Notes: generated by a model from the letters alone, not told the origin. Shown: positions 2,824 to 56,987, counted from the first letter of the stretch. The stretch: DNA of 64,000 nt from an uncultured Gammaproteobacteria bacterium (GCA_964550845.1 CAZKAD010000001.1:21342-85341); one strand, 5' to 3'. Made by a program: numbers and translations.

Positions 2824-5781
2824 ATGTCACAGCTCACAACAGGAACTGCGTATATTTTTTCATGGTTTGCGGAAGATGACGGAATGATCCATGCATTCGG
2901 AATGACTCCAGAAAACGAAACTGTTCACTTAATTATTCTCAACTTTACTCGATATTGTTATATTGAATTACCTCCCGAAATTGACTGGGACAATCCAATT
3001 CATCAACGAAGTTTCCAAGAAGCTGTTGGATCAATGAATCAAGAAATTTATCCTCAACAAATGGTCTTTATGAAAAAGCATCGATTGTATCGAGCTCATA
3101 TGGTCAAAACCGATCAAGGTTATCAACGATGTTTATTCCCTTATCTTTTTGTTTGTTTCAAAACGCAAAAGGCAATGATTGATTTCACTCGTCGAGTTAG
3201 TTGGGGAATCTATATTGAATCAATTGGAAGAAAAATTAATTTACGTTCGCATGAACAAGACGCAAGTCCTTTTTTGCAACTCGCAGTTTGTCGCAACATC
3301 CCAATTACCGGTTGGATTGACTTCACTGGAGTGAAGCAATCCGATGACTGGAATAGCTCTTATTGTAAACATGAATATGTACTCAATTGGAATACACTGT
3401 CTGCTTCGAAAGACCAAAAATTGCTCAAGACTTTGCCCAAAGTTAAAATCGTTTCTTTTGATTGGGAGGCAAACTCAACCAATCATAATCGAATGCCAAA
3501 TGAAAAGAAGCCCGGAGATGTCTTGTTTCAATGTTCGATGAGTGTGTTTGAACATGGATCGGATAAAATCGAAAATCATCTTTTGACTCTTGGTTATCCT
3601 GATCCAGCGAAAGTAAGTGAAGGAAGAACCGATCCAGTCAAAATTCATCACTACGCAACTGAAGCTGACATTTTGGAAGGATTTGCCAAAATGATCATTG
3701 AGCTCGATCCACAAGTGATTACCGGATACAATATCATGGGCTGGGATTTCAATTATATGATTGCCCGCGCTAAACTAAACAATGTCTATCAATCATTTTC
3801 CCAATTTGGATACATCAAAGGAATGTCTGCGAAAGAAAAGAACATTACCTGGTCAAGCTCCGCATTTAGCAAACAAAGTTTTTCTTATCCTGCAATTGCC
3901 GGACGAATTATTATTGACATGCTTCCTGTGATTAAAAGAGGGTTTAAGTTTGCCAGTTACACGTTGAGTAATGTTTCAGTTGAAATCCTCGGGCCGAATC
4001 AAACCAAGGATCCTCTCACTCCACAAGGCATTTTCAAATGCTTTCAAATTGGATCACCTGAGACACTATCGATAGTAGGCAAGTATTGTGTGAGAGATTC
4101 CGAAGTCACTTCGTTTCTGTTCCAAAAACTCAAGACTTGGGTTGACAGCTGTCAAATGTCAAGTATTATGGGTGTTCCGATCTTTGATCTTTCGACACAA
4201 GGACAACAAGTTAAGATTTACGCTCAAATTTATCGAGATTGTTTTCTTAAGAATACGGTCGTTGAAAAGAATGGCTATGTCTGTGAAAAAGACGAGAGTT
4301 ATACCGGTGCAATCGTGTTGACACCTATTCCAGGTCTTCATGAAAATGTGGTTACGTTTGATTTCGCCAGTCTGTATCCATCAGTAATTGTGGAAAAGAA
4401 TATTTGTTATTCGACTTGGGTGATTGATCCAAATATTCCAGATGAAGATTGTCACGTACTTGAATGGGAGGATCATATTAATTGTCCTCATGATACCGAA
4501 AAAAGATCCGACAAAAAGAAAGTGATGTGTGCGAAACGTAAATATCGATTTCTTAAGACTCCGCAAGGAATTTTGCCAAATATTCTCACGCGATTGACTG
4601 CTGAAAGAAAGAAAGTGAAGAAAGAGCTCGAGGGGGTTGAAGAAAAGGAGAAGGAAGAAAAAGATCCTATGTTGAAGAAAGATTTGAAGATGTATGCAAC
4701 CATTCTTGACATGACTCAAATTGCAATTAAAACTGTATCCAATAGTATGTATGGTGTGATGGGTGTTACCGAAGGCCGACTGCCTTTTATGCCAGGTGCA
4801 ATGTCGACTACCGCTGGTGGTCGAGCTGCAATTATGAAAGCGAAGAAAATCATCCTTGATCGTCATCCTGGCAAAGTTATTTATGGTGATACCGATTCGT
4901 TGATGTATATCTTCGATGATATGAAGCGTTTCGAAGATGAAAAGGGGAAGATCGATTACAAAGCTCTTGAAAAGTTCTGCAACAAAGTGTCAGAGGAAAT
5001 CTCTTGTCACTTTGCAAAACCGATGAAACTCGAATTTGAAAACATTGCGGAACAATTCTTTATTTTAACCAAGAAAAGATACATTTCAAAACTCAGTAAT
5101 GGAAAAGTTAAAAAGCGAGGTATCATGTTAACTCGACGAGATAACGCCGCTTGCTCGAGAAAAGCTTATGAAGGATTGCTTAATCTTATCTTTCAAAAGG
5201 CACCCCTGGATAAAATTTTTGACTATATTGTTGAAGCTCTCAATCAAATCTATAGCCATTATTACCCAAGCAAAGATTATGCAATCACAAAGAGTATCAA
5301 AGACATCGATACTTACAAAGTCAAAGCTCTTTCAACCGAACTAGTCGCTCGTCAACGACAATTGAAGAATAAGTTTCTTCCTTATGTTGAACCAAACAAT
5401 CCACAGGCCTCGAAGATCGAAGATGAATACAAATTTCGATCTTTGCCAGCCCATGTTCAGTTGGCTGAAACAATGAGATCAAGAGGGTCAATTGTTGAGT
5501 CTGGAAGTCGATTTGCTTATGTAGTGACTACTAAAGGTGGTCCTTCGGGAAAAATGTGGCAAAAGATCGAAAGTCTTGAATATTATTCTCGTCATCAGGG
5601 AATGATCAATTTAGATAGCAATTACTATGGCAAGGCCCTGATTAATCCGTTTGATGAAGTACTTCAAATCATGTTCCAACGACAAAATTTTACTAAACAA
5701 CAACACAAAATTCGTCTGCAAAAATATGAGATGCTCCAAGAGCTGAAGAGATTGATGGCTCCTCAACTTATTGCTGAATAA
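2824..5781 (+). CDS. polB: DNA polymerase, family B
   Basis: Exo I SFDWE, motif A FDFASLYPS, motif B KTVSNSMYG, motif C YGDTDS. 985 aa, uninterrupted. Confidence 0.97.
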   Translation: MSQLTTGTAYIFSWFAEDDGMIHAFGMTPENETVHLIILNFTRYCYIELPPEIDWDNPIHQRSFQEAVGSMNQEIYPQQMVFMKKHRLYRAHMVKTDQGYQRCLFPYLFVCFKTQKAMIDFTRRVSWGIYIESIGRKINLRSHEQDASPFLQLAVCRNIPITGWIDFTGVKQSDDWNSSYCKHEYVLNWNTLSASKDQKLLKTLPKVKIVSFDWEANSTNHNRMPNEKKPGDVLFQCSMSVFEHGSDKIENHLLTLGYPDPAKVSEGRTDPVKIHHYATEADILEGFAKMIIELDPQVITGYNIMGWDFNYMIARAKLNNVYQSFSQFGYIKGMSAKEKNITWSSSAFSKQSFSYPAIAGRIIIDMLPVIKRGFKFASYTLSNVSVEILGPNQTKDPLTPQGIFKCFQIGSPETLSIVGKYCVRDSEVTSFLFQKLKTWVDSCQMSSIMGVPIFDLSTQGQQVKIYAQIYRDCFLKNTVVEKNGYVCEKDESYTGAIVLTPIPGLHENVVTFDFASLYPSVIVEKNICYSTWVIDPNIPDEDCHVLEWEDHINCPHDTEKRSDKKKVMCAKRKYRFLKTPQGILPNILTRLTAERKKVKKELEGVEEKEKEEKDPMLKKDLKMYATILDMTQIAIKTVSNSMYGVMGVTEGRLPFMPGAMSTTAGGRAAIMKAKKIILDRHPGKVIYGDTDSLMYIFDDMKRFEDEKGKIDYKALEKFCNKVSEEISCHFAKPMKLEFENIAEQFFILTKKRYISKLSNGKVKKRGIMLTRRDNAACSRKAYEGLLNLIFQKAPLDKIFDYIVEALNQIYSHYYPSKDYAITKSIKDIDTYKVKALSTELVARQRQLKNKFLPYVEPNNPQASKIEDEYKFRSLPAHVQLAETMRSRGSIVESGSRFAYVVTTKGGPSGKMWQKIESLEYYSRHQGMINLDSNYYGKALINPFDEVLQIMFQRQNFTKQQHKIRLQKYEMLQELKRLMAPQLIAE

Positions 5782-5834: not shown

Positions 5835-7060
5835 TGGGTGCAATTACATCAAACAATAAATTGACCGCAGCTGGAGCTCTCGATCTACAACAAAAACTTT
5901 ACGAAGTTCGAGAAAGTCTCAAGCAGAAATTCAAATATTCTGAAATTAAGTATTCAGATCTTGCTACAGATCCAGAAATATTTCGACAATATGAGGGTGG
6001 TCGATTCGAAATACATATTTTAGCCACTGTTAATAAGGGAGGAAAACCTTATGTTCTTCACACCCTTCTTCCCGATTTACGTGACGTTGAAGGATACAAG
6101 AATATTTTTTTGAGTTACATTCAAATTATTGAACAAGTTCAGCCTTATGTTTCGAAAACTTATCTCCCGGTGATGAAAGGATGGACTGTTATGAAGTATA
6201 ACATTGACGATCATGATATTTTTCTCCCTGCAATTGTGTATGAACCATTTGTTATAACTGATTCAGTCGCAAGTTGGGAAAGCGCGGAATTAACACCATA
6301 CAGCTGTCAAGATGTTTATCAATTTGCGATTAAATCATTTCAAACTTTGATTGTAACTAGAAATCTAAAAGCAGGTTGTCATTTCTCTCGATTTGCGACT
6401 TTCTTTGCTCTTAATGGAAAAGGACTTGTTATGCTTCCGGGCAAACCTTGTAACCAAGGAGCCAATAAATGTGATCAGGACTATTTTAATGATAAAAGTC
6501 CGGCTGCAATTGATGAAATTAATGATATTACTTATCTACTTATTCAATTGATGGTTGGAAATGGGGCAAATCAGTTCATCCAAAAAATAAGCTCTAACAC
6601 TAATCAAATCAATCAAGGAAAACAATTTCTCTCGCAACATGTTGGAAAACTTTGTCAATTGCTGCTCGAGCCTCTTCTCCAAACCGACATTTCAAATATC
6701 TATACTCCGGAAGCATATCTCGAGTATCTCCGATCGAAACCAGTTCTAGACATGTTCACCAAAGTCAGTGGAATTGAACAGACAGACGAAGATGTGCAAA
6801 AAATTGCCCAAGATCTCGCGCTAATTAAATCTGTAAATCAAACTGCATTTCAAGAATATTGTGGTTCTCGAGAACCTTTGAGAGAAGTACTCCGATCGAT
6901 GTTGAAATGTCTCGGAGAAGCAGACAAAACTTTATCTGCGGATGAAAAAGTCAAATTGATTAAGCAGATGATTTCAGATTCAAAAGTTAATCTTTTTGCC
7001 GTTTGCTACAAAGGCGAGGAACTCGAACAAGAAATATCCAATTTGGCAAACCAAGAATAA
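5834..7060 (+). CDS. hypothetical protein with MGxxxS (myristoylation-type) N-terminus
   Basis: Start moved to ATG 5834 (MGAITSN). The 5771 extension reads through hairpin 5810..5834. Confidence 0.6.
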   Translation: MGAITSNNKLTAAGALDLQQKLYEVRESLKQKFKYSEIKYSDLATDPEIFRQYEGGRFEIHILATVNKGGKPYVLHTLLPDLRDVEGYKNIFLSYIQIIEQVQPYVSKTYLPVMKGWTVMKYNIDDHDIFLPAIVYEPFVITDSVASWESAELTPYSCQDVYQFAIKSFQTLIVTRNLKAGCHFSRFATFFALNGKGLVMLPGKPCNQGANKCDQDYFNDKSPAAIDEINDITYLLIQLMVGNGANQFIQKISSNTNQINQGKQFLSQHVGKLCQLLLEPLLQTDISNIYTPEAYLEYLRSKPVLDMFTKVSGIEQTDEDVQKIAQDLALIKSVNQTAFQEYCGSREPLREVLRSMLKCLGEADKTLSADEKVKLIKQMISDSKVNLFAVCYKGEELEQEISNLANQE

Positions 7061-7089
7061 TAATCTAGCAAAAAATTCAACTTTTTCTT

Positions 7090-7113
7090 TTTCTTTTCTT
7101 TCCAGAAAAGAAA
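7090..7113 (+). terminator. polypyrimidine/polypurine hairpin 2 nt before the next start codon
   Basis: tttcttttct-ttcc-agaaaagaaa. Confidence 0.5.
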
Positions 7114-7115
7114 TC

Positions 7116-8768
7116 ATGGCGAATGTAAGTATTTACGATCTTTCTTTCAAAGGAAAGGAAAAACAGACCGGATGGTTTGGAGGAGAAACAATCGCAGAAA
7201 TTGACTCTGGACTCCAAATTACAAGCAAACAAGTCCTTCCGAATGAACAAATCTACAAGGCAGTGAAAAAAGTTCCTTCTGATAAGACTCTTCCAGATGA
7301 CTTTGTTGTCCAAGTTTTTTTTACCTTTGATGAACAAAGCTTTATTCGAAACAAGAATGCTGTCCGAATGATGAAGAAAATCAGTGACAATATGGCACCA
7401 AACGGATTTTATTCAATGCCCTCGTTACCTTTTGTCTATTCTTTCTATCCAAATGATCGTCAAGTGAATCAAAGGACCAATACTACCTACGCAATCATGA
7501 AACCTATCCCAATGTGGAGGCATATTCTCGACACTTCAACGCGAAAATTCCACTGGTTTATGTTCAATGCGCTTTCCACTTTGTTCTATCTTCACAAGCT
7601 CGGAATCATTCACCGAAATATCTCTCCCGACAGTGTCTACTTTGTAACTGACTCGAATGATAATCCTTCGATTTTTATTCATAATTTTGCTTCTGCTTGC
7701 TGGATGAATGATCAAACCGATTTAACCCAGATTGTGAAGTGTAATGAAACTGCTCCACTCCTCGACTACATCGATCCAGTCCTTCTTCCGAAGAGTCGAG
7801 TTCAACTTCAAAAGCTGCAACAACAAGCAGCGAGTAATTTGAGTGAGGCAAGAAAAAAGGAACTTATTGGTCAAATTGACCAGGCTCAGGCAGAATTCAA
7901 TAAGAAAAAGAATGATTTCAATGCGGCTGGAAAAGGAAATCAGATCCAGAATGACCCCAGTATGAAAGTGTTAAGGGAAAAAATTGGTAGATTGAGGGGA
8001 GAACTTGGCGGAGCTCCTCCGCGAGATGTACGTGATAATCAGGCGACTTATGCTCCATTCACTGACAAGTCTGATGTCTACGCAATGGGAATGTTATTTT
8101 ACCAAATTGTGACACAAGGAATTGGTTATGAAAACCAAAATCGTGATCCTTGGGATGAAGCTCTCGCTTCAAATATTGATTTTCCTCAAAATCAAGACAA
8201 GATTTATGCCTCAAGAAAATTGAGATTATCGCGATCAAATCTTGATGCCAGACTCCAAAATTTAATTCTCAAGATGATTCACCCAAATCCAGCACAACGC
8301 TGTGATGCTGAAGAGGGTCTTTTACAATTGATTGTTTCCGCGCCTGGTGCAATTGAGGAAAAAGTTGCCCAATTTAGAATCTCAAATATGGAAGGAGAGC
8401 CACAACGAGCAATTATGAGATTTCTTGGATCTCAATCTCATCCAGAAATTCCCAATTCGAACGAAGGTACGTTGGCTAAAAGAATGCAATTAAAATGGTC
8501 AGACATCGATCAACAAATTCAAAACAGTGAAGAGGCTGCGAATAAGTATGGTTCGATTCGAGAGCGAAAATTTAGTCCTGAACAACAAGGATCTTCATGG
8601 GGACAAGGTTTTTATAAGGCCGGTTTGGCTGCTGCACCTCTCGCAGTACCAGCCGCCGTAGCTGTATTTAATCCATTTGCTGCAGGTGCAATGGTTGCCG
8701 GAGCGGGTTTAATCAAAGTTCACGATCGGTTTCAACAGAAATTGTCACAACGATGGAGAAAAGGATAA
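7116..8768 (+). CDS. protein kinase-like protein, probable pseudokinase with hydrophobic C-terminal tail
   Basis: Kinase subdomains LGIIHRNISPDSVYF, IHNFASA, SDVYAMGMLFYQIV, HPNPAQR. HRD and DFG aspartates are both Asn. Gly/Ala-rich tail GLAAAPLAVPAAVAVFNPFAAGAMVAGAGLI. Start at ATG 7116. Confidence 0.75.
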   Translation: MANVSIYDLSFKGKEKQTGWFGGETIAEIDSGLQITSKQVLPNEQIYKAVKKVPSDKTLPDDFVVQVFFTFDEQSFIRNKNAVRMMKKISDNMAPNGFYSMPSLPFVYSFYPNDRQVNQRTNTTYAIMKPIPMWRHILDTSTRKFHWFMFNALSTLFYLHKLGIIHRNISPDSVYFVTDSNDNPSIFIHNFASACWMNDQTDLTQIVKCNETAPLLDYIDPVLLPKSRVQLQKLQQQAASNLSEARKKELIGQIDQAQAEFNKKKNDFNAAGKGNQIQNDPSMKVLREKIGRLRGELGGAPPRDVRDNQATYAPFTDKSDVYAMGMLFYQIVTQGIGYENQNRDPWDEALASNIDFPQNQDKIYASRKLRLSRSNLDARLQNLILKMIHPNPAQRCDAEEGLLQLIVSAPGAIEEKVAQFRISNMEGEPQRAIMRFLGSQSHPEIPNSNEGTLAKRMQLKWSDIDQQIQNSEEAANKYGSIRERKFSPEQQGSSWGQGFYKAGLAAAPLAVPAAVAVFNPFAAGAMVAGAGLIKVHDRFQQKLSQRWRKG

Positions 8769-16274: not shown

Positions 16275-18800
16275 TCAAAATTCATTTTGAATTGGTATCA
16301 CAATCACGGGATCTTTGATTGCAGCCATCTTTAGAATCCGAAGTTGAGACTCAAGATCCTTAATCTTCTTTTCATAATCAAGTTGACGTCGTTTGAAATC
16401 ACTGGTTGTTTCTTGGAGTTTAAGTTGATTATTTTTCAAACCGTCTTCAAGTGTCTTAACATGTTGTTTCTTTCCTTCAAGTTGAGACTTCAGTTCTTCT
16501 TCGACAATCGATAATTTTGAATACTTTTCATGGAGTTGAAGGAGTTCTTCTTTTGTCTTTGTATCTTCCTCGGTTGGTTTCCACGTTTTACTCATATTCT
16601 CACGAAGAGTATTGTTTTCATCACACAAGTTAGCCACTTTACCTCGAAGTCCAATATTTTCTTCTTCTAAAGTTTGAGTTCGAACATTTGCAAATTTAAT
16701 TGCTTGTTCGGCAGTCTCATCTTTCTCTTTTAGCAATAAATCGACTTTACTCAATTGTCCTTCGAGTTGAGCAATTTTATCGAGATAATTTGTTTGATTC
16801 GCTCGAAGAGATTCAATTTCGATTATCTTTTGATTCAAATCATCCTGGCAATGTCGAAGATCATCTCGTGAACGATCCGCAACAGATCGAATATTTTCAA
16901 TTTCATTTTTCACTAATGAAATACTTTTCTGAAGTTCAGTGACTAACGCAGTTTTACTGTCAAGTTCTTCAGCCATCTTTTGGAATTGATCAAGTGATTC
17001 TTCATAATTAGCTGGCGTGAGAGTCGGTTGAACAATCAAATTGTATTCTTTCTTAAAGTCTTTCACATCGATACCTTTCTTTTCACAAAGTTCAATTAGC
17101 TTATTAAGATCTTTAGTCAAAGCTGAAATAATGATTTGTTGAGTAGCAAGTTTTTCATTCGCTTCAAAGAGAAGACGTTTGTATTCTTCAACATTCATTT
17201 CAAGATTAACCACCGGTTTGTTCAAAATGGTTTGAGTAATAGCACCAAATCTCAGCGTTGAAAGAGTTTCTTCATAATTGAATTTCGCAGGTGAACAAGT
17301 AATTACCAAATGAGTTTTACTGTTTCCACCGAGGGAATCGGTCAAAAGACGAGTCAATTTTGAATCTCGATATGGAATGAAACTCTTTTTTTCAGCCAAA
17401 CTTCGAATCACCAATCCAAGAGTCAATAATGATTTGTTAGTTGAACTGGCTTGCTTCAACAGCAATCCTTCAGCCTTTGTTTTCGCTACCTTTTCAGATC
17501 CGGCCAAATCGACAAACACTATTCGCGAGATAATTTTCTTTCCAGTCTTCAGTTCATTTTGTTGAAGATGCATCACCAGTACTGAATGACTTCTCGACGA
17601 ATGAGCGTTCATCGCCGTTTCAGCAACTGTTCGATTCAATTCTCCCTTTCTCATTACACGGACAGCATCTTCAAAACAATTGACATAAGTTTCAGTCACA
17701 TCTTCAATCCATAATCCTCGGAAACGATCCTCACGAATCTTTAGGTCATCGCGAAGAGGTGAGAGCAGATCTCGAATTCGCTCGAGATAAATTTCAACAT
17801 ATGACATGCTAACCAAAAATTCATATCCTTTTTTCCCACGAATCGCGGTAAATAAATCTTTGATTAACCGTGGAACTACACCCATCTCAGTTTCGGTTTT
17901 CCAGAGTTCTCCCTCCTGAGACAGAGCATCGGGATTGTCTACCGATGCAGCGTATCCAGTCATTGTAGTAGTTTTTCCTGAATTATGTGTAATAGTTCCA
18001 TCGGCAAGCAAAAATCGTTCAGGACGATCTTTAATCGGTTCAAGTTGAAATCCTGAATACAACCCCATTCCAACATCTTCAATTTCGAATGAATAAGTTT
18101 CAAGGCCCTTCGAGGCCGGTTCAAGGCCCTTCGGGGTTGGTCCAATTTTCTTATCCTCTTTTCCGATCATTCGAACTCCAAGATAATCTTGTTTATTCTT
18201 TTGTTTCAATAGTTCCTTGACTGACATATCAATCAGCTTTGACTCAAATTGGAGTGTCAAAACGTGATCAAGATTCACCGTGTAAAAACTTTTCTTTTTC
18301 ACATCTCGAATTTTAAACATATGTGAAATTCCAGTAAACAACTTGATCACTTCTCGAACATTTCCTTTTTCGTCAACAAGTTTGTCACCGACTTGAACAT
18401 CTCGTGCTTGAATAATAGATCCATCGATCAGTAAGATTAGTGTCTCAGGAGAAAGGCATCCAGACTGACCATAAGCAAAGATAGTTGCATTGTATCCTTG
18501 AAGAATCTCATCAAGTAAAGGTTTACCAACAGCTTGATATACTTGTTCTTGAGTTGCTTTTTCTTCAAACACTTTGTCGTAATAATATCGATTATCTTTT
18601 ACCTCTTGTGGAAGATTAACAACGTTCCCATTCACCACAATCATTCGATTACCTCCATTTTTTAATTCCGTTTCATTACAAGGGCGAAATCGACAAAAAA
18701 CTTTAACATTTCGATCATCTCTTGGCTCTGTCTCATCCGATTTTTTAGACTCTGGTTTAGACTCTCGGGGAGAAAATGGTTTTGATTTTGCTTTCATCAA
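16275..18800 (-). CDS. kinesin motor protein (N-terminal motor, C-terminal coiled coil) interrupted by a mini-intein
   Basis: Switch I SSRSHSV, switch II DLAGSEK, NKSLLTLG, IPYRDSKLTRLL. P-loop split GQSG/SGKTTTM. Long heptad-rich tail. Confidence 0.93.
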   Translation of the reverse strand: MMKAKSKPFSPRESKPESKKSDETEPRDDRNVKVFCRFRPCNETELKNGGNRMIVVNGNVVNLPQEVKDNRYYYDKVFEEKATQEQVYQAVGKPLLDEILQGYNATIFAYGQSGCLSPETLILLIDGSIIQARDVQVGDKLVDEKGNVREVIKLFTGISHMFKIRDVKKKSFYTVNLDHVLTLQFESKLIDMSVKELLKQKNKQDYLGVRMIGKEDKKIGPTPKGLEPASKGLETYSFEIEDVGMGLYSGFQLEPIKDRPERFLLADGTITHNSGKTTTMTGYAASVDNPDALSQEGELWKTETEMGVVPRLIKDLFTAIRGKKGYEFLVSMSYVEIYLERIRDLLSPLRDDLKIREDRFRGLWIEDVTETYVNCFEDAVRVMRKGELNRTVAETAMNAHSSRSHSVLVMHLQQNELKTGKKIISRIVFVDLAGSEKVAKTKAEGLLLKQASSTNKSLLTLGLVIRSLAEKKSFIPYRDSKLTRLLTDSLGGNSKTHLVITCSPAKFNYEETLSTLRFGAITQTILNKPVVNLEMNVEEYKRLLFEANEKLATQQIIISALTKDLNKLIELCEKKGIDVKDFKKEYNLIVQPTLTPANYEESLDQFQKMAEELDSKTALVTELQKSISLVKNEIENIRSVADRSRDDLRHCQDDLNQKIIEIESLRANQTNYLDKIAQLEGQLSKVDLLLKEKDETAEQAIKFANVRTQTLEEENIGLRGKVANLCDENNTLRENMSKTWKPTEEDTKTKEELLQLHEKYSKLSIVEEELKSQLEGKKQHVKTLEDGLKNNQLKLQETTSDFKRRQLDYEKKIKDLESQLRILKMAAIKDPVIVIPIQNEF
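17982..18458 (-). other. mini-intein (159 aa, Hint domain, no endonuclease) inside the kinesin P-loop
   Basis: Begins CLSPETLILLIDGS (block A), has internal TVNLDHVLTL (block B-like), ends FLLADGTITHN followed by +1 Ser. Excision restores GQSGSGKT. Confidence 0.85.
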
Positions 18801-18948: not shown

Positions 18949-19383
18949 ATGAGTTGGGCCGATATGTTTCGTAAAGGGGGTCGATTTTCCGAGGCTCTTC
19001 AAAAGCTCGAACAAAAAAGTCTTGAACAAAGACGAGTCGAAATCAAAAAAATTACCTTTCGATCTCCAGATTCTACTCCAGTAATCGTGATTCCTGAAAA
19101 TGGAATTCGGTTAGACAAAATGAAATATGTTTGTCCATCTGATGTTGACGTTGGACGATTGAATTACATTGTGACAAAGAAAATTCAATCAGCAACTCCA
19201 AATACCGAAAGGGCCTACTTCTTCTTTACTGAAGGAAAGCAAATTCCTCCGACAAGTCAATTGATCAAGGATCTATGCGCAAAAAATAAAAATGAAGATT
19301 TTTCTCTCCATCTTTATTTAACAGCTGAAGAAACGTTTGGATTTTCTTTTCCCATCCAAAATGAACATCCAGAAAGTCTTTGA
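18949..19383 (+). CDS. ATG8: ATG8/LC3/GABARAP-family ubiquitin-like protein
   Basis: Aligns by eye along GABARAP: PDSTPVIVIP, LDKMKYVCPSDVDVG, AYFFFTEGKQIPPTS, EDFSLHLYLTAEETFG followed by a 13-aa tail. Confidence 0.85.
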   Translation: MSWADMFRKGGRFSEALQKLEQKSLEQRRVEIKKITFRSPDSTPVIVIPENGIRLDKMKYVCPSDVDVGRLNYIVTKKIQSATPNTERAYFFFTEGKQIPPTSQLIKDLCAKNKNEDFSLHLYLTAEETFGFSFPIQNEHPESL

Positions 19384-21062: not shown

Positions 21063-22580
21063 ATGCAAGCTCTTCTTGATCAAATTGACGACTCAGTTCG
21101 TTCAATGGACGATGATATTCGAGTTTTGGTCGACAACCTTAAACAACTTAATACCGAAGATATTTTAGAAATACATCTTGATATCCTTTCGAAAAAGCTT
21201 TCCAACGTCCCAGACACTTTTGAGTCTCGAGATCAAGTGATTGAAGTTATTCTCGATTCATGTAAATATGCTGAAAAAATGCGGATTTTTAACGGTCATT
21301 CAAACGGAATTTACAACAACGTTTCGTATCCTTATGCAGTCGCAATTCAAACGATATGTTATTTTGACGTCTACGGAGAAATGACCAAACAAAGTTTGCT
21401 TGAATGCATTTCTTTTGTTGCTTTGTTGGAAGAACCTTCTTGTAGTGATGACTTGATCTCTGAATGGTATGAAGATAAAAAAGATATTCATCTCGAACAA
21501 TTTCAATATGCACTTCAATTTGCGTCGAAGATTCGAGACATTTATCTTCCTACACCAGATAGAGAGATTGGTTTATTCACTGGAGATTATCTCTCAGTTG
21601 AAGTTCACCAAAAAATAATCGAATTTCTGAAAAAGAATCGGTTTACTGACCGAGGATCTTATCTTGAATTACTTCCAGAAAAAGATCGTCAGGCATTTCT
21701 TGCTTTTTCGAGGATTACTCCACAATGGATAGCAAAAAGAGCTTTTGTACCTCATCAAGAAGATAAAAGTATGGAACAAGGTTCTCACGCACTTGTTCGA
21801 AGATGGATTGATCCTGAAACTCATGAATATTACGTTGTTAAAACATACGGAATTAATTCTGAATACAACGCTGGTCTTCGAGAACTTCTCGCATTTCATA
21901 TCTTTTCACATCCGAATATTATTCGATGTCATAGCTGGGCAGTGAATGAAGATTTTACTGCACTTCAATTTTTCCTCGAAGATGGAGGTGAAGAAGTGAA
22001 CAATAAATATACCAGTGTAAGATGGATCAAAAAATATGTTCCACAAATTCTTCGTGCTCTTCGTCACATTCATACTCGAGGTTTTGCTTATCGTGACTTA
22101 AAAATGTGTAATCTTGTCTTTCAGAGGGGAAAAGTGAAACTGATTGATCTTGGAATGATGAGAAGAACAGTTACTTTTGGAGGATCGAATGAAATGATGG
22201 CTTTCGGAGTCGGTCCAGCCGAAGTATTTGAAGGCAGAACCATTTATCCTGGTTCGGTTGATATTTGGTCACTTGGAATACTCATGTGTGTGCTGTACAA
22301 AAAGAATCTCGCTATTGGCTATGGTAAATGTAAGATTATGCCTCCTTGGAATAAAAGATCACGAATTCGAGTCTTGTGTATCAAGGATTTTCTTGAGATA
22401 CTGACCAAAGATGAATCCGAAGAACTTGAATCTTTTCAAGAGAAATATCCGGGCTATGGTAATGTCGCCTTTACCATTTCAGAAGTTCGTCATCAAAAAC
22501 TTCTCGCGTTGATTCGAAGATGCTTTCAAAAAGATTCCCCCACTGCTGGAGAACTACTTCGAGATCGATTCTTTCATTAA
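21063..22580 (+). CDS. Ser/Thr protein kinase with about 230-aa unknown N-terminal domain
   Basis: YYVVKTY, FAYRDLKMCNLVF, KLIDLGMM, VDIWSLGILMCVL. Confidence 0.85.
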   Translation: MQALLDQIDDSVRSMDDDIRVLVDNLKQLNTEDILEIHLDILSKKLSNVPDTFESRDQVIEVILDSCKYAEKMRIFNGHSNGIYNNVSYPYAVAIQTICYFDVYGEMTKQSLLECISFVALLEEPSCSDDLISEWYEDKKDIHLEQFQYALQFASKIRDIYLPTPDREIGLFTGDYLSVEVHQKIIEFLKKNRFTDRGSYLELLPEKDRQAFLAFSRITPQWIAKRAFVPHQEDKSMEQGSHALVRRWIDPETHEYYVVKTYGINSEYNAGLRELLAFHIFSHPNIIRCHSWAVNEDFTALQFFLEDGGEEVNNKYTSVRWIKKYVPQILRALRHIHTRGFAYRDLKMCNLVFQRGKVKLIDLGMMRRTVTFGGSNEMMAFGVGPAEVFEGRTIYPGSVDIWSLGILMCVLYKKNLAIGYGKCKIMPPWNKRSRIRVLCIKDFLEILTKDESEELESFQEKYPGYGNVAFTISEVRHQKLLALIRRCFQKDSPTAGELLRDRFFH

Positions 22581-23216: not shown

Positions 23217-24566
23217 ATGAAAGCTCGATTTTTAAAGTTGACTCTTATTCCAAATCCGGCAAACTATCGAACAAAATATATCAGTTACATGAGTCAAATC
23301 GCCGTTAAACTGAATATTGAAGATAATATTTTGATTGGTGCAATTGAACTTTTTGATCGACTGCCGTATATTTCCGAAGAATGTTCATTTTTGTTTGCGT
23401 TTGGATGTTTTTATTTAGCTGTACTTCTTTACGAAGGGGGCAACGACATTCGAGAAAAATTGCCTCGATGTTGCAAAGGTGTTTATGAAATTGGTGATTT
23501 GACCAAGATAGTAGATACTTTGGTGGTTGAAATCATGACATGGTTACCTGCACCTATTTATCCAAATAGCTTTTCAAGAGCCTATCATATCGTTACTGGA
23601 AAGCATTTAACGAAAGAAGAAGAACGCTCACTCGTTTTGATTTATCTTAAACAATCAAGTACTCTTGAATCAACTGAATTGAAAACTTTAGCTCTTCCTG
23701 AAAATCAACAAAAGAGAATCAAAGAATTTATGAATCAACCAAGTAAAAATTCTTTGTTTCAAGAGTATCATCCGGATTTTCAAAAAGGCAATTTGCTTGG
23801 ATCAGGTGAATGGGGTCGTGTTGTTGCTCATCCAAATGAATGGGGGAAAGTGATTAAAAAATCACTCAACAAAGAAGAAGCATATGAAACTTTTGTCCGA
23901 GAGATTGCACTGCTCTCTTCAATTAGTCACCCTCACATTATTAAAATGCACGGATGGAGTTACAATGAAGGCAAATTTTATCTCATTCTCGATAAAGGAA
24001 TACCAATTAAATTAACTTCAAGAACAATTCAACAAGAGGGATCTAAACTTCTTCGAGCTCTTGATCATCTTCATTCACAAGGATTTATTCATCGCGACTT
24101 GAAACCAGATAATATATTGTATGTGAATGAAAATATTACTCTTTGTGATTTCGGGATTACTAGAACTCAAGCAAGACGAGGATTGACTGGTATGAGAGTG
24201 CCAGCTGCAAATATCCCTCCCGAAATGCTTAAACAAAGAAAATACAATTACGATTCTGCAGTCGATATTTGGGCTTTCGGATTGTTAGTTGCCTGGATGG
24301 TTAAAGATTTTATTTTTAGTGATATTGTCGAAGATAAGGATAGTCATCATAAAATTCAAATGCAAATAATTGGATTCAAGACTGGTTACAAATTTCCAGA
24401 TAAACAACACACTCCGAGATATTCCCTTCATGACATTGAGAACGAAGACGCAAGAGACTTAATTGAAAGATGTCTGACTGATTGTCCACAACAAAGACCG
24501 AAAGCGAAAGATTTAATTAATCATCCTTTTTTAACCAGTCCCGAAGGGACGTTTAAGGCAAAGTAA
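23217..24566 (+). CDS. Ser/Thr protein kinase with cyclin-box-like N-terminal domain
   Basis: LLGSGEWGRVV, KVIKK, FIHRDLKPDNILY, LCDFGITR, VDIWAFGLLVAW. N-terminus YISYMSQIAVKLNIEDNILIGAIELFDRL...FAFGCFYLAVLLYEG. Confidence 0.85.
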   Translation: MKARFLKLTLIPNPANYRTKYISYMSQIAVKLNIEDNILIGAIELFDRLPYISEECSFLFAFGCFYLAVLLYEGGNDIREKLPRCCKGVYEIGDLTKIVDTLVVEIMTWLPAPIYPNSFSRAYHIVTGKHLTKEEERSLVLIYLKQSSTLESTELKTLALPENQQKRIKEFMNQPSKNSLFQEYHPDFQKGNLLGSGEWGRVVAHPNEWGKVIKKSLNKEEAYETFVREIALLSSISHPHIIKMHGWSYNEGKFYLILDKGIPIKLTSRTIQQEGSKLLRALDHLHSQGFIHRDLKPDNILYVNENITLCDFGITRTQARRGLTGMRVPAANIPPEMLKQRKYNYDSAVDIWAFGLLVAWMVKDFIFSDIVEDKDSHHKIQMQIIGFKTGYKFPDKQHTPRYSLHDIENEDARDLIERCLTDCPQQRPKAKDLINHPFLTSPEGTFKAK

Positions 24567-32257: not shown

Positions 32258-33235
32258 ATGAGTTCGAAGTTAACAAGGCAAGATCTGATTGAACGACTCA
32301 AAAATGTTGGTTATACTTCATTAAGCAGATTAAGAAAGGGAGAACTTGAACAGCTTTATCTGAAGATGCAAAAACAAGAGGAGAAGAAAGAAGAGAAAAA
32401 CGTGACGTTCCGAGAAACTGTAAGTATGAACATTATTACACAAAATATATCGACTCCCTCGAGTATATCAAATCATTCGACTTCCTCGAACATAACAACT
32501 CTTTCGGAACGTCCTTCGAATCCTTCAACACGCTTACCCACATCAGAACGTTTAACAACCAGACGAAATAAAAAGCCTGATCCAGTGTATTTTGAAGAAG
32601 AATTTGAGAAACTTCGAAATACAGAGATATCAAAATATACCAAAATTGTTCAGCTTGGGCAACCAGGAAAAGAAGGCACTACTTATTTAGTGATGGATCC
32701 AGTTCGTCCTGAAAAACGATATGCAATGAAATGTTTCCGGAGAACAAAATCAGAAAATCGCCTTGCCGAAGAGGCTCATTATCAATGGATTGTTTCAAAA
32801 GCTGGGTTAGCACCAAAAGTATATGAATTTAATCCGAGAGAAAAGTACATTTTAATGGAAGCTCTTGATCGAACACTCCTTAATATTCTTCATGAAAATC
32901 ATGGAAAATTTCCCGAATCACTTCAACAGAAAGTGATTGATTTGTACAAACAACTTGACGAAACTGGTGTAGCAGTCAATGATGGAAATCCAAGGAATAT
33001 TATGGAGAAAAATGGGAAACTTTATATGATTGATTATGGACTAGCTAAATTTTCGAATTCTTCTTCATTTCGCAAGTATCCAACACCAAATATGACGTTA
33101 CTTCCAAATGCCCTCTTTTTCTATATCAAAGAGAAGTTCGATACACGCGATTGGACATTACTTCGAAAATTGGTTCCAGCTGAAGCACTTCGAGAATACG
33201 ATCGATCATATTTACTCAAACATCAAAAGAGATAA
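32258..33235 (+). CDS. HeH/SAP-like motif plus atypical protein kinase
   Basis: N-terminus LTRQDLIERLKNVGYTSLSRLRKGELEQLYLKM. Kinase GKEGTTYLV, YAMKCF, NDGNPRNIM, MIDYGLAKF. Confidence 0.7.
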   Translation: MSSKLTRQDLIERLKNVGYTSLSRLRKGELEQLYLKMQKQEEKKEEKNVTFRETVSMNIITQNISTPSSISNHSTSSNITTLSERPSNPSTRLPTSERLTTRRNKKPDPVYFEEEFEKLRNTEISKYTKIVQLGQPGKEGTTYLVMDPVRPEKRYAMKCFRRTKSENRLAEEAHYQWIVSKAGLAPKVYEFNPREKYILMEALDRTLLNILHENHGKFPESLQQKVIDLYKQLDETGVAVNDGNPRNIMEKNGKLYMIDYGLAKFSNSSSFRKYPTPNMTLLPNALFFYIKEKFDTRDWTLLRKLVPAEALREYDRSYLLKHQKR

Positions 33236-34864: not shown

Positions 34865-35998
34865 TTAATTTACCCTCAATCCGTATCGAGCTGCAAAGAC
34901 GTTTTCCAACCGCTTCTCTTCTTTTACGGTCATAAATTGTCCATTTTGAAAATAAACCAACCAGAGAGAAGCTTCATTGTACGACAAAGTTTGAATCATT
35001 TGATCAGGAAAGAAATTAATGATTAATTCCTCTCTCAGTCGATAATCCTTGACCAATTTGTCGGCTAATGTCTTCAATGACGATCCGAGTGAAGAAGGAA
35101 AAGATGAGATTAGTCCGTCTTCTTTCAGGCAAGCATAATCAATCATTGCAATCTCTTGTGGAGCTGGTCCATCAAAACATAATGCCAAATCAAAGTCAAT
35201 GATTGCAAATCCAGATCCTGAACGAACCAAGTTTCGAATGTAGAGATCATTGTGAACAATACCAATATGATGAAGTTTTTCAACCAAGGCCACAATCTTC
35301 TTTTGCTCGGCAGATGAAAATTTTCGAGCATGATCAAACGGGGTACATTGGGCAAGAATCGCCAAACCATATTGAACCTGACCAACTTGACAAACTTGAT
35401 AAGCGAGTAATTTCGCTCCAACTCCTGCCTTCCCAGCTCGCTGGAGCATTGTCAGCTCCCATTTAAATGCATCAAATCCTCGTTCACGAAGATCGGTCAG
35501 TTTGAATACAACATTTTTACCTCCATAAACTCCCTTGAAGACAACTCCTCCAGATCCTCTTCCAATCTCATCACCTTGTCCAAAATCTGTAAGACATTTA
35601 TCCATTGATGAATACATCTTGACCTGAATTTTTTGTCCAATTTCTTGGTAATCTTCAAGAGGAGAAGTTAGCAAAGCTTCTTCAGCTTCGGTACATTCAT
35701 TAATTGAAATATTACCTCCGGTTATAAGTCGATGCAAGAGTTCTGCAACTACATCAGCTTTATTTCCTGCAATTGGAGGATTGGCTTGTTTAGCAAGTTC
35801 TTGAATCTTTTTCGCTGAAGCATGAATAATTTCGATTGCACTTGGAGTCTGCAAAGCCCGATTTCTCTTTAAGAGCCGTTCGCGAATTTCACTAATTGAA
35901 TCTGACGAATAAAACGAAACCGGATATGCCAACTTCATATTCAACTCGAGGAGAGCCTTTTTTGTCTCGGCTCGGCGGATTTTTGCTTCAAGATCCAT
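34865..35998 (-). CDS. HeH/SAP-like motifs plus protein kinase
   Basis: AKKIQELAKQANPPIAGNKADVVAELLHRL. Kinase IGRGSGGVVFKG, VVFKL, IVHNDLYIRNLV, IIDFDLA. Confidence 0.8.
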   Translation of the reverse strand: MDLEAKIRRAETKKALLELNMKLAYPVSFYSSDSISEIRERLLKRNRALQTPSAIEIIHASAKKIQELAKQANPPIAGNKADVVAELLHRLITGGNISINECTEAEEALLTSPLEDYQEIGQKIQVKMYSSMDKCLTDFGQGDEIGRGSGGVVFKGVYGGKNVVFKLTDLRERGFDAFKWELTMLQRAGKAGVGAKLLAYQVCQVGQVQYGLAILAQCTPFDHARKFSSAEQKKIVALVEKLHHIGIVHNDLYIRNLVRSGSGFAIIDFDLALCFDGPAPQEIAMIDYACLKEDGLISSFPSSLGSSLKTLADKLVKDYRLREELIINFFPDQMIQTLSYNEASLWLVYFQNGQFMTVKEEKRLENVFAARYGLRVN

Positions 35999-54050: not shown

Positions 54051-56987
54051 ATGCAGATTGGAGAGGTGGTTGTACGTCTCCTATCACCAGAAGAAATATG
54101 TGCCTTTTCTGTTTGTGAGGTAAAGTATGAGAAGATTCGAAAGAACGATGATAATACTGAAACTCCAGCTGATCCAAGACTTGGAACTCTTGATGAAACA
54201 CCATGCAAAACATGTGGATGTGAATTTCGAGACTGTCCAGGGCACTTTGGTCATATTGTACTTGCAACGCCTATCATTCATCCTCTTGATCGATTTCCGA
54301 TTATTACGGCCGAACTTCTTTCTTGTTTTTGTAGCAATTGTTGTAGATTGCTAGTAACCCGAGAGATGTTAATGATTGAGCGAATAGGTAAATTGCAGAA
54401 AAATAAACGTCTCGCTAAAATCGTAGCTCTTTGTACGAAAATGGGTATTTGTTATCACTGTAATCAAAAAACATTGAAATATAAGCTTGATACCAGCTCG
54501 GGAAGAGCCAAAATCTATTCTCAAATAAAAACGATCACCGGAAACGATGATACCCCAGTTGAGATTCCCGTTGAACAAATTTACAACATTTTCTCCAGAG
54601 TCTTAGATGATGATCTTAAATTGCTTGGAATCAATCCAAAACAATTTCATCCCAAGAATTTGATTATACGTATCTTACCTGTATTGCCATTGAAAACAAT
54701 GCCTTATATTGTTACAGATAATGAAAAGAGAGAAGATGATTTAATGACTTTCTATCGAAATATCCTTAAGGTTAATTCAAGAATTCTTTCTCATTCATAT
54801 GTTGATCTTGACAAAGAGATTAGCAGTCTTGTCTTTTACATCAGTAATTTTATGGATAATTCAAAAAAGAAAGTTCGCCAACCGAACGGAAGAGCACATA
54901 AATCACTTCGTGAACTTCTTTCAAGTAAAAAAGGTCTACCCCGTATGTGCCTCCTTGGTAAAAGAGTGCACTATTCAAGTCGTACTGTAATTGGAGGTGA
55001 TCCAACTCTTGCGACTGACGAAATCTTTATTCCAAATTGCATTGCTTCAACTGTTTCTGTTCCAGAAACAGTCACTTCGTTCTCAAAAACCAAGCTTGAA
55101 GCACTGTTGAATAAGGGAGAGATTAATTTTATCTCTCGAATCGAGAATGGAACGAAGCGTGTACTCAATCCAAGAATTGCAACCAAAACACAAGGAACAA
55201 TCTTACTTCCGGGTGACAGAGTCTTTCGAAATGAGGTTGAAGTTAAACTTCAACGGAGCGGAGATTTACGCCAAGGAGATCGAATTGTCCGAAAAGTGCT
55301 TAAAAATGGTCAAACAATTGAAGAAACTCTACACGCCGAAGAACCAAAGAAAAGATCTTTCCTTCTTCATGATGGAGATATTGCCCATCGATGGTTACAG
55401 AATGGAGACTGGGTGATTGTCAATCGACAGCCTTCTCTTCATGCTCAATCAATGCTTGGACTCAAAGTAAAACGAACCAATCAGAAACCTGGGAAATATA
55501 CATTTGAAGAACGATCAATTCGTCTTCCTCCAGATGCAATTACTCCTTTGAATGCAGATTTTGATGGTGATGAAAGTAATGTTCACAATCCACAAAATTT
55601 AATGGCAAAATCAGAATATGCAGTTTTAATTAACATTGCTAACAACATTATTGCGAATCAATCTTCAAGACCTTTGATTGGATTGGTGCAAGATGCTCTG
55701 ATTGGATGTTGGAAAATGACACAAGGATGGGTCCCAATTCCAGTCAGCTTGTTTCAAGATATGATTGTCACTGCAAATATCAGTCTTGAGAGAATTGATC
55801 AAGTCCGGCAAGTATATCAAAGGATTTTCGGCGATGGAGATAAATATCTCTATACTGGAAGAGGTATATTGTCGACTGCATTGCCAATTACTTTCAATTA
55901 TAGCTCAAAGAGCAAATCTTATAACTCAGAATCTCTTCAAATTGAAAGAGGTGTAATAATTTCTGGAGCTTATGGAAAAAGCTCGGTTGGAAATCGAAAC
56001 GGAGCAATCCATCATTTTCTCCGAGAAAAAGAAGCGATTCAATTTCTGACTAAAACTCATACTCTTGCTTACGCGTGGGTAGTTCAAAATGCAATCGGTG
56101 TTGGATTATCTGATTGTATTCCTCCGATTGTAGATAACTTCGGAATGATTCCACAAGCGCGCGAACATATTGAAGCAAGTTATCTGAATGCTGTCATTTC
56201 AGAAGAAATTATTTCAGGACGAATCGCGGAACTCTCAGTTTGTCGCGTCTTGAATAATGCTCGTAATGTTGGTCACAAGATTGCCAGTGAATTGATCGGA
56301 AATTCAAATCGAATCAAGCAAATGATTGATGCCGGGTCAAAAGGATCAATGAACAATTTGACTCAAATCATGGTAGCACTTGGACAAAACACCGTGTACA
56401 ACAGACGAATTCCAATGACAAATATTGATGGACTTCGTACATTGCCACATTTTTCAGCCAATAAAGATAATCTGGCTAAAAAATATGAAGAAAGAGGTTT
56501 TATTGATACTTCGTTCTTCAATGGATTGAATCCAATCCAATTCTTTAATCACGCCCAAACCGGCCGTGAAGGTATTGTTAATACCGGTGTCACTACTCGA
56601 GGTTTCGGATACATTCAGAGAAAACTCACTGCATTGTTGAAGAATATCACTATTGCTCAAGATTTTACTGTTCGAGATTGTGGAACAAATCAAATTGTTC
56701 AATTCATTTATGGAGAATTTGGTTTTGCTCCTTCGAAACAAAATCGAGATAAAGGTCAACTTTATGTTGATATCACGACAGCAATTGATAAAATTACAAT
56801 CGAATATGAACTTAAGCATCAGATTGAAGAAATTTCACTCTCAGAACAACAGAAGAGAGATGCTCAAGAAGAAATTGAAGCTGATCGAATCTCGATTGCA
56901 TCAGGTGCAAGTGATAATGATGGTTCTGCCTCAGAAGATTCTATCTCCAACGCAAGTGGAGATGAAAATGATTTTGATGACTTTTAA
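54051..56987 (+). CDS. RPB1: DNA-directed RNA polymerase largest subunit, N-terminal portion only (A'-like)
   Basis: LSPEEICAFSV, zinc sites CKTCGCEFRDCPGHFGH, NRQPSLH, NADFDGDE, bridge helix GREGIVNTGVTTRGFGYIQRKL, QFIYGEFG. Then an acidic non-homologous tail and stop. No trigger-loop region. Confidence 0.93.
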   Translation: MQIGEVVVRLLSPEEICAFSVCEVKYEKIRKNDDNTETPADPRLGTLDETPCKTCGCEFRDCPGHFGHIVLATPIIHPLDRFPIITAELLSCFCSNCCRLLVTREMLMIERIGKLQKNKRLAKIVALCTKMGICYHCNQKTLKYKLDTSSGRAKIYSQIKTITGNDDTPVEIPVEQIYNIFSRVLDDDLKLLGINPKQFHPKNLIIRILPVLPLKTMPYIVTDNEKREDDLMTFYRNILKVNSRILSHSYVDLDKEISSLVFYISNFMDNSKKKVRQPNGRAHKSLRELLSSKKGLPRMCLLGKRVHYSSRTVIGGDPTLATDEIFIPNCIASTVSVPETVTSFSKTKLEALLNKGEINFISRIENGTKRVLNPRIATKTQGTILLPGDRVFRNEVEVKLQRSGDLRQGDRIVRKVLKNGQTIEETLHAEEPKKRSFLLHDGDIAHRWLQNGDWVIVNRQPSLHAQSMLGLKVKRTNQKPGKYTFEERSIRLPPDAITPLNADFDGDESNVHNPQNLMAKSEYAVLINIANNIIANQSSRPLIGLVQDALIGCWKMTQGWVPIPVSLFQDMIVTANISLERIDQVRQVYQRIFGDGDKYLYTGRGILSTALPITFNYSSKSKSYNSESLQIERGVIISGAYGKSSVGNRNGAIHHFLREKEAIQFLTKTHTLAYAWVVQNAIGVGLSDCIPPIVDNFGMIPQAREHIEASYLNAVISEEIISGRIAELSVCRVLNNARNVGHKIASELIGNSNRIKQMIDAGSKGSMNNLTQIMVALGQNTVYNRRIPMTNIDGLRTLPHFSANKDNLAKKYEERGFIDTSFFNGLNPIQFFNHAQTGREGIVNTGVTTRGFGYIQRKLTALLKNITIAQDFTVRDCGTNQIVQFIYGEFGFAPSKQNRDKGQLYVDITTAIDKITIEYELKHQIEEISLSEQQKRDAQEEIEADRISIASGASDNDGSASEDSISNASGDENDFDDF

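Follow-up and report, generated by a model that had tools for sequence, protein, structure and literature searches.

A putative class-1 mini-intein within the Walker A motif of a kinesin-1-like motor from a Mimiviridae-like viral lineage

How can a kinesin whose P-loop is cut in two by 159 additional residues remain a motor, and what is the inserted segment? The question is raised by a 64,000-nucleotide stretch of DNA recorded under an uncultured Gammaproteobacteria bacterium (GCA_964550845.1, CAZKAD010000001.1:21342-85341), referred to here as the window, in which a kinesin-1-like gene carries an in-frame insert between the two halves of its Walker A motif. The evidence assembled below makes it very probable that this insert is a splicing-competent class-1 mini-intein, that is, what remains, after loss of the endonuclease, of a LAGLIDADG homing intein that would have invaded the Walker A codons of the gene in a Mimiviridae-like lineage; splicing itself is a prediction. 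A regulatory role appears to be absent, and the evidence favours a selfish element.

The split P-loop and the inserted splicing domain

The first-pass annotation of this DNA, made from the sequence alone, had placed a 159-residue insert between GQSG and SGKTTTM at positions 17982-18458, and minus-strand translation together with the junctions reproduces these limits exactly. In the open reading frame (ORF) listing, a single minus-strand ORF (16275-18800) encloses the insert, whose 159 codons are in frame and free of stops (CLSPETLILLIDGS...YTVNLDHVLTL...RFLLADGTITHN), and the plus strand of the same segment is full of stops. The junctions read IFAYGQSG/C...THN/SGKTTTMT, with slashes marking the insert boundaries. 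When the unspliced precursor is searched, the Pfam Kinesin match is split in two stretches (319.1 bits, 3.7e-95); after in silico excision, which had been proposed to regenerate the canonical motif, the P-loop indeed reads GQSGSGKT and the resulting 681-residue kinesin gives one complete match (1-327/327, 342.4 bits, 2.9e-102). The closest PDB relatives of the spliced protein are kinesin-1 heavy chains (1goj, 9.9e-90), its SSRSHS (switch I SSRSH) and DLAGSE (switch II) sequences are both intact, and weak coiled-coil-type matches cover the tail region. With its P-loop, switch I and II, N-terminal motor domain and coiled-coil stalk, the host protein is predicted to be a kinesin-1-like motor. Translation most likely starts at the ATG at 18797, giving 840 residues, because homologues start with MKAKSK; the TTG at 18800 selected by the ORF tool is probably unused. 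The exact 840-residue product is contained in a public protein collection, where it is placed on a contig of 259,314 bp.

Taken alone, the insert matches Pfam Hom_end_hint (PF05203) with 44.2 bits (E = 3e-11) where the gathering score is 32.1, so that the comparison with intein profiles suggested at the outset gives a result above the cut-off. Searching the PDB with phmmer retrieves PI-SceI/VMA1 and Prp8 intein chains, and the intein N-terminal models of NCBIfam match at sub-threshold level only. We generated a structural model with AlphaFold2, using an alignment of ten kinesin mini-inteins as input. The resulting model (predicted local distance difference test, pLDDT, 88.4; predicted template modelling score, pTM, 0.82) adopts an all-beta HINT fold apart from a disordered segment at residues 101-116, where pLDDT falls below 50, and contains a short high-confidence helix at residues 80-84. 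Analysis of this model with Foldseek against the PDB places Cryptococcus Prp8 inteins first (E 5.6e-10 and 1.2e-09; template modelling scores 0.74-0.86) and PI-SceI domain I next; among the 50 PDB matches listed, 47 are inteins and the others are Hint domains (BIL, hedgehog).

The class-1 hallmarks proposed in the first-pass annotation, Cys1, a terminal His-Asn pair and a serine at the +1 position, are all present. Cys1 is invariant in 27 of 27 kinesin inteins at this site (the window copy included), and the +1 residue is Ser in 26 of them; P0041, the remaining one, has Cys (THN/CGKT) and would give GQTSCGKT once spliced. Identity in the ten-sequence mini-intein alignment is just 32-42% outside the window clade, and the residues invariant in all ten are C1, L2, P4, T6, N62, H65, G132, G136, L151, T157, H158 and N159. 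The block-B-like stretch TVNLDHVLTL had also been recognised; it exists, but the Thr that this reading implied is not the conserved position, which is held instead by Asn62 and His65. Block B thus reads V61-N62-L-D-H65, i.e. Asn-x-x-His, and block F reads Y-x-G-F-x-L and has no Asp. This combination, VN-x-x-H in block B with a block F devoid of Asp, is what we take to be the VMA1-type pattern. Neither Pfam nor NCBIfam detects an endonuclease domain in the insert, which bears out the earlier statement that LAGLIDADG and HNH modules are absent. The HINT fold, Cys1, block B, the HN/S junction, the in-frame position at a conserved site that is empty in other alleles, and the lack of an endonuclease together characterize the insert as a class-1 mini-intein, predicted to splice.

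Other classes of element were considered and rejected. A class 3 intein is excluded since Cys1 is present and is the sole Cys of the window intein, so that the block-F Cys nucleophile of that class is impossible. BIL and Hedgehog Hint domains are incompatible with the HN/S junction and with flanks that are the two halves of one Walker A motif, and in the Foldseek search their structures score far below inteins (ranks 30 and 36). An intron or an ordinary loop insertion does not account for an insert that is in frame, is predicted to adopt the HINT fold and carries splice-junction residues at both ends. A bifunctional intein of the PI-SceI kind is likewise rejected: the window copy has neither the two LAGLIDADG motifs nor the endonuclease domain.

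From the conserved residues and canonical class-1 chemistry we infer the following course of events. The 840-residue precursor would be translated with its P-loop split into GQSG and SGKT, and in this state it should not properly bind or hydrolyse ATP. Once the HINT domain has folded, Cys1 would undergo an N-S acyl shift, and the resulting thioester would be attacked by Ser+1 in a trans-esterification. Cyclisation of Asn159, assisted by His158, would then free the intein, and an O-N shift would join the exteins, yielding the 681-residue kinesin with an uninterrupted GQSGSGKT and a free 159-residue intein. The predicted ligated junction peptide is GYNATIFAYGQSGSGK. The anatomy of the gene and of the intein is summarized in Table 1.

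Table 1. Features of the kinesin locus in the window (positions counted from the first nucleotide of the window)
Feature	Position	Strand	Description
Kinesin-1-like gene	16275..18797	-	Intein-bearing precursor, 840 aa + stop; N-terminal motor, predicted coiled-coil stalk, short conserved C-terminal peptide
N-extein, aa 1-113	18459..18797	-	Terminates in the first Walker A half, ...IFAYGQSG
Class-1 mini-intein (predicted), 159 aa, Cys1 to His158-Asn159	17982..18458	-	Identified from translation, Pfam PF05203, PDB sequence matches, AlphaFold2 model and Foldseek
N-terminal splicing region, intein aa 1-72	18243..18458	-	Block A (CLSPET) and block B (YTVNLDHVLTL; Asn62/His65 at 18264-18275)
Retained segment, intein aa 73-96	18171..18242	-	SKLIDMSVKELLKQKNKQDYLGVR; homologous to ...IDIPVKEY...YKG[VI]R..., which precedes the LAGLIDADG domain in full-size relatives
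Disordered linker, intein aa 101-116	18111..18158	-	KKIGPTPKGLEPASKG; occupies the position of the homing endonuclease of full-size relatives; 7-aa repeat
C-terminal splicing region, intein aa 117-159	17982..18110	-	Block F (GLYSGFQL...RFLLADG) and block G (TITHN)
C-extein	16275..17981	-	Ser+1 nucleophile and second Walker A half SGKTTTM, then the remaining motor (SSRSHS, DLAGSE), stalk and stop codon
ATG8/LC3 homologue	18949..19383	+	Divergent from the kinesin gene, outside the intein; Pfam ATG8 60.3 bits, cut-off 27

Alleles at the kinesin site, intein family and selection

The history of the insert is recorded in the corresponding site of related genes. An intein occupies the identical site in 26 of the 120 best kinesin homologues, with Cys as its first residue, HN as its last and [SC]G[KN][ST] following, and most of the others have an empty site of the form GQ[ST][GS]SGKT. 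The intein-free alleles that the first-pass annotation had recommended looking for therefore exist, with the site reading GQSGSGKT, GQTGSGKT or GQTSSGKT. The inserts range from 134 to 419 residues and comprise full-size LAGLIDADG-type, degraded and mini forms. Long inserts contain two LAGLIDADG motifs (DPYLxGLWLGDG and LLAGLxDxDG) and match Pfam Hom_end/LAGLIDADG_3 (PF05204, PF14528), full-size examples being P0005, P0011, P0041 and P0060; those of intermediate size look like decayed endonucleases, and mini-inteins are present in several lineages. In P0038 the site reads GMTG/.../SGNT, with the P-loop Lys lost, and the intein has additional insertions; this protein may be a decaying motor.

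Alignment of the window intein with the full-size forms maps what has been deleted: a post-block-B insert of 55-85 residues and a LAGLIDADG endonuclease of 215-240 residues. The N-terminal region of the window copy aligns to residues 1-70 of full-size relatives and its C-terminal region to residues 358-390 of the P0005 intein, and it has kept the short ...IDxxxKExL...YxG[VI]R stretch found ahead of the endonuclease in full-size relatives. The linker that now stands in place of the endonuclease varies among close relatives in the number of copies of a 7-residue unit, PKGLEPA/S, with one copy in P0002, two in the window and in P0001, and three in P0124, the inteins being otherwise 84-96% identical. 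This variation looks like replication slippage in the only unconstrained part of the intein. Tandem Repeats Finder reports no repeat in the intein, and the two linker units are visible only at the protein level across strains.

Every related locus fetched has the same divergent ATG8-kinesin gene pair as the window: L001-L003 with an empty site, L004 and L005 with a mini-intein, and L006 and L007 with a full-size intein. By this shared synteny, these are orthologous loci in three intein states. On the extein tree, which is a neighbour-joining, distance-based and therefore rough reconstruction, empty, endonuclease-bearing and mini alleles are interspersed; the full-size P0005, for example, is sister to the empty P0008 and P0009, with the mini P0006 nearby. 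Such interspersion would be expected if a homing cycle runs at this site, from invasion through decay of the endonuclease to loss. Having lost its endonuclease, a mini-intein can no longer home, and it would bring no known benefit to the virus; its persistence would be explained by the fact that any deletion short of a perfectly precise one would damage the essential P-loop motif.

A benefit could nonetheless be added to this account, with which it is compatible. An occupied site is uncuttable by the LAGLIDADG endonucleases of co-infecting relatives, so that the intein might be kept as protection, as has been proposed, with Bodo saltans virus as the case, for fixed giant-virus inteins (Deeg et al. 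2018, PMC5871332). The full-size inteins of related viruses listed above have apparently intact endonucleases at this very site, and the interspersed empty and occupied alleles also fit, although both endonuclease activity and co-infection of one host are assumed in this argument and the difficulty of precise deletion already accounts for persistence. The homing-site DNA of an endonuclease-bearing allele and that of its sister empty allele differ at ~10 of 48 nucleotides, mostly in third codon positions, which is neutral as to whether the empty site can be cleaved. We regard protection as possible rather than probable.

The intein also belongs to a much larger family. Searching 1.84 billion cluster representatives with a profile of the ten kinesin mini-inteins gave 7,858 proteins with E <= 1e-3, of which 350 reach E <= 1e-30. 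Within the best 150 of these 7,858 members, which were parsed individually, ~18 are kinesins, and in many others the intein interrupts a Walker A motif, at G/[ST]GK (the kinesin position) in some and at GK/[ST] in others. Host proteins identified with Pfam include thymidine kinase, AAA+ ATPases, a helicase-like protein, topoisomerase II and Rpb1. In several small P-loop proteins, two inteins of the family lie in one Walker A motif only three residues apart (GKPG/intein/TGK/intein/TTLITSLL); such doubly invaded proteins are P0146, P0147, P0149, P0151, P0157, P0160, P0162 and P0165. Spliced in silico, P0146 is a protein of 261 residues that matches the poxvirus A32 packaging ATPase only weakly, below threshold. 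Inteins from P-loop NTPases and helicases of phages can also be aligned over the whole element and its flanks, with 30-33% identity. Within the 64-kb window, no other intein of this family was found in any frame. A word-index search of a 5.8-billion-protein index with the intein alone returned no match, which we read as a limit of the index and not as evidence, as near-identical inteins exist in P0001-P0004.

The intein content of another gene varies as well. The family-B DNA polymerase (PolB) of the window (2824-5781, plus strand, 985 residues) has no intein, and its 95%-identical relative P0286 (1465 residues), together with many more distant ones, carries a Pfam Intein_splicing match. To judge from these proteins, the PolB intein is polymorphic in presence and absence within one viral lineage.

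The breadth of this family bears on the question of whether the insertion is regulatory or selfish, both of which the first-pass annotation had entertained. Some archaeal and bacterial inteins are known to splice conditionally. Because the insertion splits the catalytic P-loop, splicing would necessarily gate the ATPase, and one could picture a kinesin that stays inactive until an infection cue such as redox state, temperature, pH, a partner protein or the stage of infection releases it, a post-translational timer of a viral motor that might act with the neighbouring ATG8 in a membrane-transport module. A block-F loop specific to the window clade (PERF, with a 4-residue insertion) could tune the rate, and the intein is under purifying selection. 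Yet any intein lodged in an essential motif should be under such selection, the site is empty, at the same ATG8-kinesin locus, in most of the best kinesin homologues, and the recurrence of the family in many unrelated proteins fits the site preference of a selfish element and not kinesin-specific regulation. With no Cys besides Cys1, an internal disulfide (redox) trap is impossible. A switch of this kind is thus highly unlikely. The selfish half of the initial suggestion stands, favoured by the relics of a homing cycle and by a P-loop-prone family; for the regulatory half, no feature of the intein suggests regulated splicing.

Selection on the gene was measured as the ratio of nonsynonymous to synonymous substitution rates (dN/dS) from codon alignments of the window with two relatives, P0002 and P0004. 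Between the window and P0002 (synonymous divergence, dS, ~0.7), dN/dS is 0.030 for the motor, 0.072 for the intein and 0.026 for the tail; for the intein in the more distant, saturated pairs it is 0.09 (window and P0004) and 0.11 (P0002 and P0004). The intein is under purifying selection, and the motor is clearly maintained. That a motor with an interrupted P-loop is maintained would imply that the intein splices.

Several observations nevertheless weigh against a splicing-competent homing remnant descended from a kinesin allele. The dN/dS of the intein is ~2.4 times that of the motor; the window clade lacks the block-F His of most relatives (NHRF/NGRF replaced by PERF/PARF); and its block-F loop is 4 residues longer, changes that could slow the C-terminal reaction. 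In BLAST comparisons the window intein is about equally close to P0178, at a topoisomerase II site (41%, 94.0 bits), and to its nearest other kinesin intein, P0006 (36%, 94.7 bits), and with tied scores the window clade may descend from a common kinesin allele or stem from an independent ectopic invasion. Carried further, the altered block F, the indel-prone linker repeats and the lost P-loop Lys of the distant relative P0038 (SGNT) could be taken to indicate a dead, non-splicing insert in a pseudo-motor that functions without hydrolysing ATP, or in a decaying gene. This is very improbable, since every residue that the four splicing steps require is intact and invariant, the HINT fold is modelled confidently, and neither the intact SSRSH and DLAGSE motifs nor the low dN/dS values of motor (0.03) and intein (0.07) are those of a gene in decay. 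A class-1 mini-intein that still splices remains the reading best matched by these features.

Viral context and the adjoining ATG8 gene

The first-pass annotation called the kinesin virus-encoded, and the content of the window supports this well. The sequence has ~36% GC and dense intron-less ORFs on both strands, which encode PolB, an Rpb1 fragment, a three-domain mRNA capping enzyme, a ribonucleotide reductase small subunit, FEN/XPG, RNase H, a resolvase and several protein kinases; no tRNA and no capsid gene are present in the window, and a homology search with PolB retrieves metagenomic relatives only. The octamer AAAATTGA, which we take to be the Mimiviridae early-promoter motif, occurs 40 times in the window (e.g. 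at positions 2762, 18856, 54001 and 57696) where 25.9 occurrences are expected. It lies within 120 nucleotides upstream of 19 of the 51 ATG-initiated ORFs of at least 150 residues, compared with 3.5% of random 120-nucleotide windows; for these 19, among them PolB and Rpb1, the distance is 17-108 nucleotides. The giant-virus genes and the promoter octamer make assignment to a Mimiviridae-like uncultured giant-virus lineage well supported, with the placement at family level drawn from these sequence features.

A eukaryotic origin, whether as a host kinesin or as a viral element endogenised in a host chromosome, has in its favour that the sequence is a metagenome-type contig and that endogenisation is known among giant viruses (Ha et al. 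2021, PMC8407384). It is hard to reconcile with dense intron-less ORFs that include PolB, Rpb1, the capping enzyme and ribonucleotide reductase, with an octamer preceding 19 of 51 ORFs, and with an extein tree on which the intein-bearing kinesins all fall outside the named eukaryotic kinesins (Symbiodinium, dictyostelids, Neocallimastix, Lutzomyia). Judged from 64 kb, the stretch may be an intact endogenised copy; a eukaryotic gene as such is scarcely credible, and the kinesin is better read as viral.

Next to the kinesin gene, the divergently oriented ATG8/LC3 homologue (Table 1) has a copy of AAAATTGA 93 nucleotides upstream, this gene lying outside the 51-ORF set. No copy was found upstream of the kinesin gene, which hints at a different temporal class. 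The window ATG8 has a 13-residue tail after FG, and in two relatives ATG8 stops at the C-terminal Gly (...TFG* and ...SYG*, the asterisk denoting the stop codon). At the extreme C-terminus, viral kinesins share a short conserved motif, ...NIF[TA]PLKY in many of them and ...V[IT]PIQNE[FN] in the window clade (16278-16310, minus strand, in the window). The F-x-P-L of this motif presumably fits the core of an LC3-interacting motif, a speculative assignment. Both the ATG8 tail (FSFPIQNEHPESL; 19342-19383, plus strand) and the kinesin tail of the window contain PIQNE; the sequence is absent from the ATG8 of P0004, so this may be a coincidence. The conservation of the gene pair suggests a viral ATG8-kinesin module, possibly for membrane transport.

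Two further features of the window were observed. The Rpb1 ORF (54051-56987, plus strand) encodes 978 residues and ends early in Pfam domain 5 (1-64 of 267), and the adjoining ORFs are unrelated; the same length of 978 residues recurs in about a dozen related contigs, and the RPB1 gene of this lineage is apparently split. Five ORFs have protein-kinase-domain matches of varying strength (6996-8768, 21063-22580, 23217-24566, 32258-33235 and 34865-35998), which is unusually kinase-rich for a viral genome.

Known inteins and significance

Inteins in motor proteins have a precedent. The first-pass annotation was aware of no intein in a cytoskeletal motor, but inteins in a kinesin and in dyneins of Anaeramoeba were first reported by Gallot-Lavallee et al. 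(PNAS 2023, PMC10710043). In that paper, 'Cytoskeleton' is a previously unreported category of intein host, and kinesin is not named among the hosts with intein-containing Nucleocytoviricota homologues. The paper also documents P-loop homing in non-homologous proteins and intein links to Nucleocytoviricota, which, together with an intein in kinesin, makes it a close parallel to the window gene in kind. Its hosts, in contrast, are nuclear genes of an anaerobic protist and the window gene is viral, and its P-loop cluster (cluster 1) is of class 3, unlike the class-1 intein predicted here.

Among individual inteins, the Saccharomyces VMA1 intein (PI-SceI) belongs to the same Pfam Hom_end_hint family and provides the best PDB sequence matches. 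The C-terminus of the window intein, ...FLLA..-x-x-x-HN, is also of its type. It presumably shares the block B Asn-x-x-His (not Thr-x-x-His) and a block F of the form Y-x-G-[IF]-x-L without Asp. The full-size kinesin relatives share its architecture, a HINT domain with an extra insert and a two-motif LAGLIDADG endonuclease. The window copy differs in having neither the endonuclease nor the post-block-B insert (159 residues compared with 454), in its viral kinesin host, in an insertion point inside Walker A itself, and in a +1 Ser instead of Cys. The Cryptococcus Prp8 mini-inteins (PDB 6mx6, 6mwy), which are the best structural matches, are likewise of eukaryote type and have a disordered linker instead of a functional endonuclease, whereas their host is a spliceosomal factor and identity is just 22-23%. 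The inteins of giant viruses (PolB, ribonucleotide reductase, topoisomerase II, RNA polymerase subunits) and the P-loop inteins of phages resemble the kinesin intein in that its profile retrieves topoisomerase II, Rpb1, thymidine kinase and AAA+ inteins; their hosts, however, are information-processing or packaging enzymes and not a cytoskeletal motor. A giant-virus intein mobilome has been described for Bodo saltans virus (PMC5871332), and ~200 kinesins have been counted in giant-virus genomes in a survey that leaves inteins unmentioned (Ha et al. 2021, PMC8407384). Searches of open-access and bioRxiv full text returned no account of an intein in a viral kinesin, and the kinesin and dynein inteins that they did return as reported are those of Anaeramoeba alone.

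A homing-intein remnant in a P-loop is an element of a well-known kind and reveals no new mechanism; its interest lies in the host and in the locus. Virus-encoded cytoskeletal motors join the hosts of inteins, a host class that is new for viruses within the literature searched. Surveys of giant-virus kinesins by domain model should expect split motor domains. The compact Cys1/Ser+1 inteins of 134-159 residues could become parts for protein engineering. The very large giant-virus family to which they belong has settled repeatedly in Walker A motifs of ATPases that are unrelated to one another, in some cases with two copies in a single P-loop, and would be useful for studying ectopic, non-allelic homing. 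At the kinesin site, finally, one orthologous locus, always adjoining ATG8, offers an unusually complete snapshot of the homing cycle, with empty, full-size LAGLIDADG, degraded and several independently minimised inteins.

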